Positions 3,226-5,712 of a DNA stretch of 46,667 nt are shown here, piece by piece. Every line of letters begins with the position of its first letter. Position 1 is the first letter of the stretch. The stretch lies in sequence record NC_054651.1, one strand, 5' to 3'. The stretch is from Escherichia phage C1. The position numbers and the translations under genes are program-made. The notes beneath the pieces are model-generated. The model was not told the origin of the DNA. It searched no databases and worked only from the letters and a program-made list of their open reading frames with translations.

Positions 3226-5712
3226 TCACGATGACGTGATGTTATATTCGTACATGTCGTCGCTGTACTCACTCATTGTCAGCGTTGTTGTTCCATCACT
3301 TCCCGGATTCTTCTGGCTTACAACCCACAAAGTGGTATCCAGTTCTTTCTCCGTGCTCAGAACGTAACGGGATTCAGATTGCACATTAGTGCCATCCCAA
3401 ATATTCAACTCGAAATCAGACGGAAGGTTGCAAGTGAATGTATGCAATCCTGTTACCGTCGCTGGCAATCTGTCTGACACGCTGCCGTCGGAGCTGGTTA
3501 TTACAACATAAAGATTATCATCAGCCGTTAGCTGCTCGCTGGTCGTGAATACGTTTCCGTTTCTCGCTTCAATAACGCCAGTCTGCTGCACATCATCATA
3601 CATATCAACAACCTGAATCATGTCGCCAACGTTAACCCATTCTCCGTCTGCCAGTGCTTTAATTTCCATGCTGCGGCGAGAATAAATCAAACGGCGACAC
3701 TCAAGGATTGCACGATCAACAGCCTGATGGCGATTGCGAACATAAAGCATGTCGAATTTCTTCGCTTTAGTTGGCTCGCATTCTACAATTCCGCTGTCGG
3801 TAATTCGATAGTAAATGTTGGCCTGCTTGTTCGTTGTTGGGTCGCGATATTCTACGTTAACGCCATCATAAGTGCCGGGAAGACTGATGTCATAGCTCAG
3901 CTTGTACCCGTCGCTCTGCGTGTTTCTGGTGTTGAATACAGTAGCTGGATATTCTCGCTTTTCATCGCGAGAGAAGCTCATTACCCCATCATCCCAGAAT
4001 GCAGTGACTCGTGCTGCGTCGCATATTGTTTGCAGACGCTCGCCGATGCTCTTATCCTCATCGTCAAACGTGTAATCGAAATAACCAAGTCGCTCATCAG
4101 GCAGGCTATCGGCAATTTCATACAGCTTCACGATGTCGATCGTGTTTTCTGGATTGCCAGCGGTAATCAACCAGTTATGCAGAACAGCATCAGCAAAGCT
4201 ACGAGATGGTGCAAGCGTGTAGCGGACCGTGCCAGTATCGCGGTTGTATCCGATGGTATGGCGCGTGATTAATGCATTATATTTCCTGTCTCGGCTTCCT
4301 GTTGCATTTTCTGTGGCTCTCACAACCACTTTAACCACCGTATCATCTGGATACGAGACGTTGGTTCGCGTGACTATTGAGTGAATCTCCTCAAGCTGAA
4401 GAATTGATGTGTCGGAGCTGTTGTTTGTTCGTCGCATCTGAATCGCGTAGCGACCAGTTCCAGCGGATGGTGTTAACTTTATTGTGTAGTAGAACGTGTC
4501 GTTTCTGTCCACATCCTGATAATAGTTCATCGACTGATATGTTCCGGGAATCTGAACGTTATCGTCATCAATCTTCCACCACTCAATGAATACGCTGAAA
4601 TCATTACCGTCATTGGTCTGGTGTTGCAGGTGCACCCAAAGCTGATCACCATCAATCGGTGAAAAGTACGGACCGGAAACAATCGGCTGGTTATCTGTCA
4701 GATTGAAATAGGTGTTATTAATCGTCACGCCATTCAGTGATGATATTGGTGCACCTGAGTAGTTGATGCTGTTAATAATAAATGTGTACCAGTAGTTTAC
4801 TGGTGGCAATCCACCATCATCAGTTTCTGTTGCAGATACGAGTCTTCCTGATAGCGTAACGTTTTCGGTGACAGATGCGCCACCTCCTTGCGCATAAGTG
4901 ATATTCAGCTTGAATACCACGTCATGAGGCATGGTCAGATCAACGAAGTAATCGAATGCTGAGTTTTTCGGTATTTTGACAGCAATCTGACCGCCAGCAA
5001 ATTCTGTTTCTGTGACCGTGGTTGTTGTTGCCGTTTCAATAACCACTGGCGGAGGGTCGGTATCCAGTTCATTTGGCCCGTAAAGCTCCTGCCCATCAAC
5101 ATCATCAAATGCGTAAGGTTCGTACACAACAGGAATAACTTCCCCCGGCTGATAAATGGTGTAACTAGCCCCAGCCAGTGAGCCGAGGTTTGATTCAGAG
5201 TAACGCACGGAAGATACATCATACTTACCGAGGCCAAAGTTCATGAACTCGGTGACATATTTAATATTATTGATGTATTCAAACAATGATTCCTGAAGCA
5301 AATCAGGAAACGCGCGAATCTGCCCGAAGTTATCAGGTCGCGCCTCACCGTTGCGCGCAATATTGGTTTGCGCTTTCAGGCTGGTGTTTGGTGATGTTTT
5401 TGAGCTGGTATCCGTTTTTGGTGTGGATACCTTCGGCGTAAGGAAGGAGAAAATCTTCGTTACTGGCTTCAGTATCGCACCGATAAGGTCGCCGATTGCG
5501 CCGGATGGCTGGCAATAAACGTTGACCACATCGCCATCTCGCAGGCAGAAAGAAAGCTCATCATCTTCACCAAGCACTCTGCCATTTACCGCAATCGAAA
5601 TGCTGGCTGGTAGGTTGGATTTATTCAGCCACTTCCACAGGTTAGTACCAGCTGGCACAATCCCCGTTTCTTTCGGTGTGCCCGGCATCTTCTGAACATG
5701 AATTACTGGCAT
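3226..5712 (-). CDS. tail tip protein, J-like central fiber / host specificity protein
   Basis: 828 aa ORF immediately downstream of K-like and L/M-like minor tail genes; size and synteny. Confidence 0.55.

Follow-up and report, generated by a model that had tools for sequence, protein, structure and literature searches.

An out-of-phase overlap of 71 nucleotides between a K-like peptidase gene and a tail-tip gene in Escherichia phage C1

In the genome of Escherichia phage C1 (NC_054651.1), the open reading frame (ORF) of a K-like tail gene runs into the ORF of the J-like tail-tip gene that follows it. This junction raises the question of whether the two genes simply overlap, whether the start of the J-like gene has been mis-called, or whether the shared stretch is a recoding site, the three readings left open by the original prediction. 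Here, we analyse the whole window of 46,667 nucleotides (nt), the sequence of which is identical to that of Escherichia phage S192 (ON239132.1, genus Deseoctovirus). We use the name S192 in all comparisons, and all window features described below are on the minus strand. The K-like ORF, encoding an NlpC/P60 (C40) peptidase, is found at positions 5642-6121 (159 amino acids (aa) from ATG 6121, with the stop TAA at 5644-5642), and the ORF of the tail-tip or baseplate hub 2 (J-like) protein at positions 3226-5712 (828 aa, with the ATG at 5712-5710). The evidence favours the simplest of the three options: the junction is very probably an ordinary out-of-phase overlap of two real and separately translated tail genes, without recoding.

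The stretch common to K and J extends from 5642 to 5712, which corresponds to 71 nt with the K stop included. J codons 1-24, K codons 137-159 and the K stop all lie in this stretch, and J is read in the +1 frame of K (6121-5712 = 409 = 3x136+1). This confirms the overlap of about 70 nt in a different frame that had originally been described. About 150 close relatives of S192 exist, with Salmonella, Escherichia and Shigella as hosts. For our comparisons, we used a set of 74 relatives composed of 72 related loci from viral contigs, the seszw locus from GenBank and S192 itself, in which the identity of K to its S192 counterpart ranges from 56 to 99%.

The tail-tip start codon, ATG at 5710-5712, is present in all 74 relatives. 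The Shine-Dalgarno (SD) sequence TAAGG is located at 5723-5727, 10 nt from the ATG and inside the K codons for Leu-Arg (TTA AGG); it is found at the same place in 73 of the 74 relatives, the remaining one having GTGGAG (GGAG). A stop in the J frame (TAA in S192) is found 15 nt upstream of ATG 5712, and 73 of the 74 relatives have a stop there. No start codon separates this stop from the ATG in S192, so that its J ORF cannot begin earlier. From Met1 onwards, the N-terminal peptide of J is conserved among the 74 relatives as MPVIH(V/I)QK.PG.PKETG. An ATG near 5688, suggested by the original prediction as an alternative start, does exist at 5686-5688, where it encodes Met9. It is present in 68 relatives and replaced by CTG, CTA, ATA or ATT in the other six. 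A further potential start codon, the GTG at 5658 (J codon 19), is lost in 43 of the 74 relatives, which have GTT or GTC at this position.

The pattern of variation in the alignment changes frame at the very same codon. Upstream of the ATG, column entropy peaks at the third positions of the K frame (0.69 versus about 0.2). Inside the overlap, the peak is at the third positions of the J frame (0.83 versus 0.12-0.13), and the switch between frames is found exactly at the ATG. Over the whole overlap, the ratio of nonsynonymous to synonymous differences (pN/pS) is 0.12 in the J frame compared to 3.4 in the K frame; known non-coding frames have ratios of 1.8-1.9. J codons 2-8, which separate the two ATGs, have a pN/pS of 0.08 when read in the J frame, while the K frame has a pS of 0 and a pN of 0.135.

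We also collected distant homologues of the tail-tip protein by searching 1.8 billion cluster representatives exhaustively with HMMER. In representatives with 31-49% identity, some of them full-length (827-831 aa), the first residue aligns with the first residue of J. Met1 never varies in the 14 diverged representatives compared, and position 9 is I, V, L or F. A word-indexed homologue search with J residues 1-130 returned just 5 proteins, mostly fragments. Thus, the true tail-tip start is ATG 5712, and the codon for Met9 is not a start: the homologue alignments, the codon-position statistics, the conserved SD and the fold model described below all speak against it. None of the 74 relatives has a J start downstream of the K stop.

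The K-like ORF is equally well supported as a gene. It matches Pfam PF00877 (NLPC_P60) over residues 23-123 (E value 6.6e-09, 36.1 bits against a curated cutoff of 23) and PHROG 329 (minor tail protein, E value 2.6e-21). BLASTP finds a weak match to lambda K in which the catalytic Cys and His motifs align. The K-like identity proposed for this ORF is therefore upheld, and the Pfam search found no match to a JAB/MPN domain in the 159-aa protein. The ORF is intact in all 74 relatives, down to 56% identity, and over the 53 codons upstream of the J start pN/pS in the K frame is 0.22 in the relatives set.

The 3′ end of K, on the other hand, drifts. After the conserved sequence ...KLRFLTYA, the K peptide varies among relatives, not only in sequence but also in length (13 to 36 residues). 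In S192, the K stop is the TAA at 5642-5644, which is made by the J codons Thr23 (ACT) and Asn24 (AAC). Across the relatives, the K stop is found at seven positions, leading to overlaps of 41 nt (2 loci), 53 nt (35 loci), 59 nt (1 locus), 71 nt (12 loci), 89 nt (9 loci), 92 nt (14 loci) and 110 nt (1 locus). A stop in the K frame requires a J codon ending in T followed by a codon beginning with AA, AG or GA, and with the J protein sequence of S192 the possible overlaps are 41, 71, 89, 92, 98 and 110 nt, among others. In the close, S192-type relatives, every overlap length observed (41, 71, 89, 92 and 110 nt) coincides with one of these permitted stop sites; the 53- and 59-nt overlaps are found in relatives with a different J sequence. 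As a null model for the length of the overlap, we drew random synonymous J codons from the codon usage of the phage's tail genes. The resampled overlaps have a median of 89 nt, and the probability of an overlap of at least 71 nt is 0.81. Given this median, 71 nt is at the level expected by chance. We conclude that the 23-residue K tail of S192 is a by-product that is free to change in evolution, and that it was not selected as a feature.

A simple model accounts for the overlap. Conservation of K stops essentially at the J ATG, and the J protein sequence leaves no room for a K-frame stop before 41 nt, so that K has to read into J codons. It then continues until the choice of synonymous J codons happens to create a stop, which in S192 is ACT-AAC at 71 nt. 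J would initiate separately at ATG 5712 by way of the TAAGG SD inside the last conserved K codons. The overlap is thus a passive outcome of two facts: K is conserved only as far as the start of J, and the sequence of the J protein rules out a stop of K any earlier.

The part of J encoded by the overlap belongs to a distinct N-terminal domain. The tail-tip protein matches PHROG 469 over residues 1-824 and the NCBIfam model TipJ (NF040662) over residues 356-822 (E value 6.7e-135), so that the J-like identity originally suggested can be specified as that of a TipJ-family tail-tip protein. It is also near-identical over residues 1-828 to gp14 (baseplate hub 2) of Shigella phage Sf11, a phage with a solved tail tip (PDB 9OCC chain E). 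Residues 1-70 (5503-5712) are predicted to form a ThiS/MoaD-like beta-grasp (ubiquitin-fold) domain. In an AlphaFold2 model based on a 14-sequence alignment, these residues have a predicted local distance difference test (pLDDT) score of 81-90, with predicted strands at residues 3-7, 15-18, 39-42 and 62-66 and a predicted helix at residues 25-31, in beta-grasp order. According to this model, the overlap would encode the first two strands and the residues that directly precede the helix. A single-sequence AlphaFold2 model of J residues 1-160 was unusable (pLDDT 42.6) and was replaced by the alignment-based one. The top Foldseek matches in the PDB are TtuB, MoaD, RnfH and ThiS, followed by the parkin Ubl, SUMO and ubiquitin (probability up to 1.00, template modelling score normalised to the target 0.58-0.71). 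The Pfam ThiS family matches the J N-terminus with an E value of 0.0024, which is below the cutoff.

At the end of the beta-grasp domain, a QPxG motif is near-invariant (Q68 and P69 at 90% or above) and is followed by GDLIGAIL. A hydrophobic Gly-rich segment (5440-5502, J residues 71-91) comes after the motif. Based on fold, position and architecture, we interpret residues 1-70 as an I-like ubiquitin-fold domain, and the tail-tip protein as a fusion of this domain to a TipJ (J-like) body. Some metagenomic representatives (P0006, P0014, P0027 and P0029, 714-1531 aa) contain 4-13 tandem stretches matching tail-tip residues ~34-99, a region made up of the latter half of the beta-grasp domain and the linker.

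Several points weigh against a J gene that starts at ATG 5712 and is translated separately from K. Independent initiation of J at its SD, as opposed to coupling to K translation, is inferred. In the Sf11 structure, gp14 is modelled only for residues 81-827, the first 80 having never been seen; this boundary fits a beta-grasp domain (1-70) and a hydrophobic segment placed ahead of the hub body. Some deposited records also use a later J start: in seszw (MZ375352.1, 2523-4958), the tail-tip gene begins at the GTG of codon 19, encodes 811 aa and overlaps K by 17 nt. One could thus propose that the J start is mis-called and that translation begins at ATG 5688 or at GTG 5658, codons which both exist in S192 and would reduce the overlap to 47 or 17 nt, respectively. 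We consider this highly improbable: neither codon is kept throughout the relatives, the SD precedes ATG 5712, codons 2-8 are under strong purifying selection in the J frame, and the distant representatives keep Met1 and vary at position 9. Moreover, residues 3-7 and 15-18 are predicted strands of a confidently modelled domain. The codons for strand 3-7 would lie between the ATGs at 5712 and 5688, so that initiation at Met9 would cut into the fold, and the GTG start of seszw, which would remove the first two beta-grasp strands, is probably a gene-caller artefact. With ATG 5712 as the start, the long overlap could still be functional, if ribosomes translating K across the J ribosome-binding site coupled or throttled J initiation and set the K:J ratio, or if the K tail had a role of its own. 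Overlaps of at least 41 nt in every relative, the similarly long K/I overlap of lambda (103 nt) and the presence of overlaps at both ends of K are in line with such a function. It is nevertheless unlikely, since the 41-nt minimum is forced by the J protein, the lengths fit a random choice of synonymous codons and the K tail, variable in length, shows no purifying selection. In addition, the SD is not sequestered in a structure that ribosomes would have to open, and lambda K and I overlap in a different phase (497 = 3x165+2), hence no nucleotide feature is conserved between the two.

Recoding would have a +1 (or -2) ribosomal frameshift join K to J into a K-I-J fusion protein. J is indeed in the +1 frame of K and open from 5724 onwards, one GAA-AGA site with a rare A-site codon is found at 5674, and in some phages the tail assembly protein I (TAPI) is fused to TAPK or TAPJ (Iyer et al. 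2006, PMC1779556). The candidate +1 contexts are however unconserved or non-canonical; for example, Klebsiella-type relatives have TTC-CTG in place of the upstream TTT-CTC. Ribosomes shifting by -1 from K would meet a closed frame, the variable position of the K stop leaves no conserved "shifty stop", and a slippery-site scan of 5642-5730 found no canonical X XXY YYZ heptamer in the K frame. RNA around the J start folds no better than shuffled sequence (z = 0.09), providing no supporting structure. The junction resembles the programmed frameshift sites of the lambda G/GT type in being an out-of-phase overlap in a tail gene cluster; it differs from them in having no slippery heptamer or conserved shift site, a length that is not conserved and a downstream ORF with its own conserved SD and ATG. 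As the J protein alone explains all conservation in the overlap, nothing that we found needs recoding as an explanation, and we regard the recoding site entertained by the original prediction as extremely unlikely. A further proposal, which does away with the overlap by denying that the K-like ORF is a gene, is implied by the records that omit it, namely ON239132.1 (S192), MF158038.1 (Sf11) and MZ726796.1 (ASO78B). It too has very little probability in view of the NLPC_P60 match above the curated cutoff, the PHROG 329 match, the catalytic motifs aligned with lambda K, an ORF intact and under K-frame selection across the relatives, and the position of K in an M-L-K-I-J order. Furthermore, many other records label this ORF as a minor tail protein or C40 peptidase.

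An ordinary overlap of two real genes also agrees with what is seen in lambda. The gene order here (by ORF order, tape measure protein-M-L-K-(I)J) is that of a lambda-type tail module, where M-L-K-I-J is found. In both phages, K is a C40/NlpC-P60 peptidase whose gene runs far into the next one, lambda K (14276-14875) and I (14773-15444) sharing 103 nt, and the gene after K begins with a ThiS/MoaD-like ubiquitin-fold domain, behind which lies a hydrophobic segment. The N-terminal domain of lambda gpI is not resolved in tail structures; hydrophobic helices and a plug that inserts into gpJ come after it. Residues 1-80 of Sf11 gp14 are likewise unmodelled, and J segment 71-91 resembles the hydrophobic helices of gpI. 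Lambda gpK is not found in virions. The two loci differ in that I is fused to J here in one 828-aa protein, in that K lacks a JAB/MPN domain and in the frame of the overlap, which is +1 here and +2 in lambda.

Sequence comparison does not establish that the J N-terminus is homologous to lambda gpI. BLASTP gives a weak match of 32 aa in the linker/plug region (E value 0.002), hhalign another weak one (E value 0.039, 1.3% probability), and PF06805 (Lambda_tail_I), which scores 100 bits on lambda I, has no match on the J N-terminus even at an E value of 10. It is on the basis of the predicted fold and the gene context that we infer homology of this domain to gpI.

The layout of an NlpC-only K with an I-J fusion is already known, and so are long K/I overlaps. 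Iyer, Burroughs and Aravind (2006, PMC1779556) identified the ubiquitin-like domain in tail assembly protein I and noted that some prophages fuse the I domain to J, in which case the accompanying NlpC proteins are usually without JAB. Their TAPI-TAPJ fusion with an NlpC-only TAPK (PMC1779556) is the same architecture as the one described here. That study (PMC1779556) does not discuss gene overlaps and regards fusions of this kind as possibly degenerate forms in prophages; here, by contrast, the arrangement is found in a large lytic siphophage family infecting Salmonella, Escherichia, Shigella and Klebsiella. With the long lambda K/I overlap and the fusion described in 2006, the biological weight of the 71-nt overlap is small, and the main use of the finding is to fix annotation.

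The close packing of K against the ubiquitin-fold N-terminus of the fusion may also point to an enzyme-substrate pair. It is conceivable, if rather doubtful, that the K peptidase cuts the tail-tip protein near the conserved QPxG motif while the tail is being assembled, and so releases the beta-grasp domain. Such clipping would account for the absence of residues 1-80 from the Sf11 virion structure, as mere flexibility of the domain would too, and the 71-nt overlap would still be incidental. Ubiquitin-like processing has been proposed for lambda K and I (Iyer et al. 2006, PMC1779556). With its solved tail structure, the S192/Sf11 phage family would be a convenient test case for clipping by K. 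We know of no test of the K/I processing proposal, the literature not having been searched for one.

Sf11 also illustrates the consequences of the overlap for annotation. Its gp14 is near-identical to the S192 tail-tip protein and has the same annotated start, and its hub 1 (L-like) and distal tail proteins also match (PDB 9OCC; PMC12724387). The Sf11 record (MF158038.1), however, has no K-like gene. In the stretch concerned (5524-5894 in Sf11), an opposite-strand "gp15" of 58 aa is called instead. The Sf11 paper does not list gp15 with the proteins of the virion. We considered gp15 as a K-like protein missing from virions and rejected it, because gp15 is an opposite-strand ORF and K itself is unannotated. 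As K is not annotated in Sf11, the published virion mass spectrometry is uninformative on K.

More generally, the K-like gene is absent from the sampled GenBank records of S192, Sf11 and ASO78B, and several other records have one feature alone under the K/J junction. Both genes are annotated in Bas80 (92-nt overlap) and F14 (53-nt overlap). In ASO78B, a pattern-matched "promoter" and "terminator" are annotated inside the K coding region. The double overlap makes gene callers drop a real K-like peptidase gene and, as in the seszw records, shorten the tail-tip gene to a false GTG start; it also results in "intergenic" promoters and terminators being annotated within coding sequence. Since K is missing from these annotations, proteomic searches against such records cannot detect K.

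At its 5′ end, K is part of a second overlap, with the hub 1 (L-like) gene. This overlap covers 6084-6121 and amounts to 38 nt if K starts at ATG 6121; within it, it is the L-frame peptide that is conserved, the one in the K frame being variable. ATG 6121 is kept in all 74 relatives. An alternative K start, ATG 6091, would give a product of 149 aa; it overlaps the L stop as ATGTCTGA, is used as the K start in the Bas80 and seszw annotations and is missing in Klebsiella-type relatives. The K start in S192 (ATG 6121 or ATG 6091) is therefore ambiguous.

We also considered a promoter-like site inside K, TTGACA-16-AAAAAT at 5766-5739, located 27 nt upstream of the tail-tip ATG and matching 10 of 12 sigma-70-like positions. 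Such sites occur in the region at chance frequency (6 found compared to 7.7 expected), and this one is not conserved in Klebsiella-type relatives; we rejected it.

Finally, the two genes are flanked by other tail genes. Upstream are the genes for the tape measure protein (7027-9939, 970 aa), the distal tail protein (M-like, 6554-7027, 157 aa) and hub 1 (L-like, 6084-6554, 156 aa), and downstream is the gene for the tailspike (1156-3186, 676 aa). The distal tail protein has 157 aa in S192 compared to 457 aa for Sf11 gp17 and 456 aa in Bas80. The part common to the three proteins is the N-terminal ~155 residues, including the tailspike-adaptor helix modelled in Sf11. In Bas80, an endonuclease gene is inserted between the genes for the tape measure and the distal tail protein.

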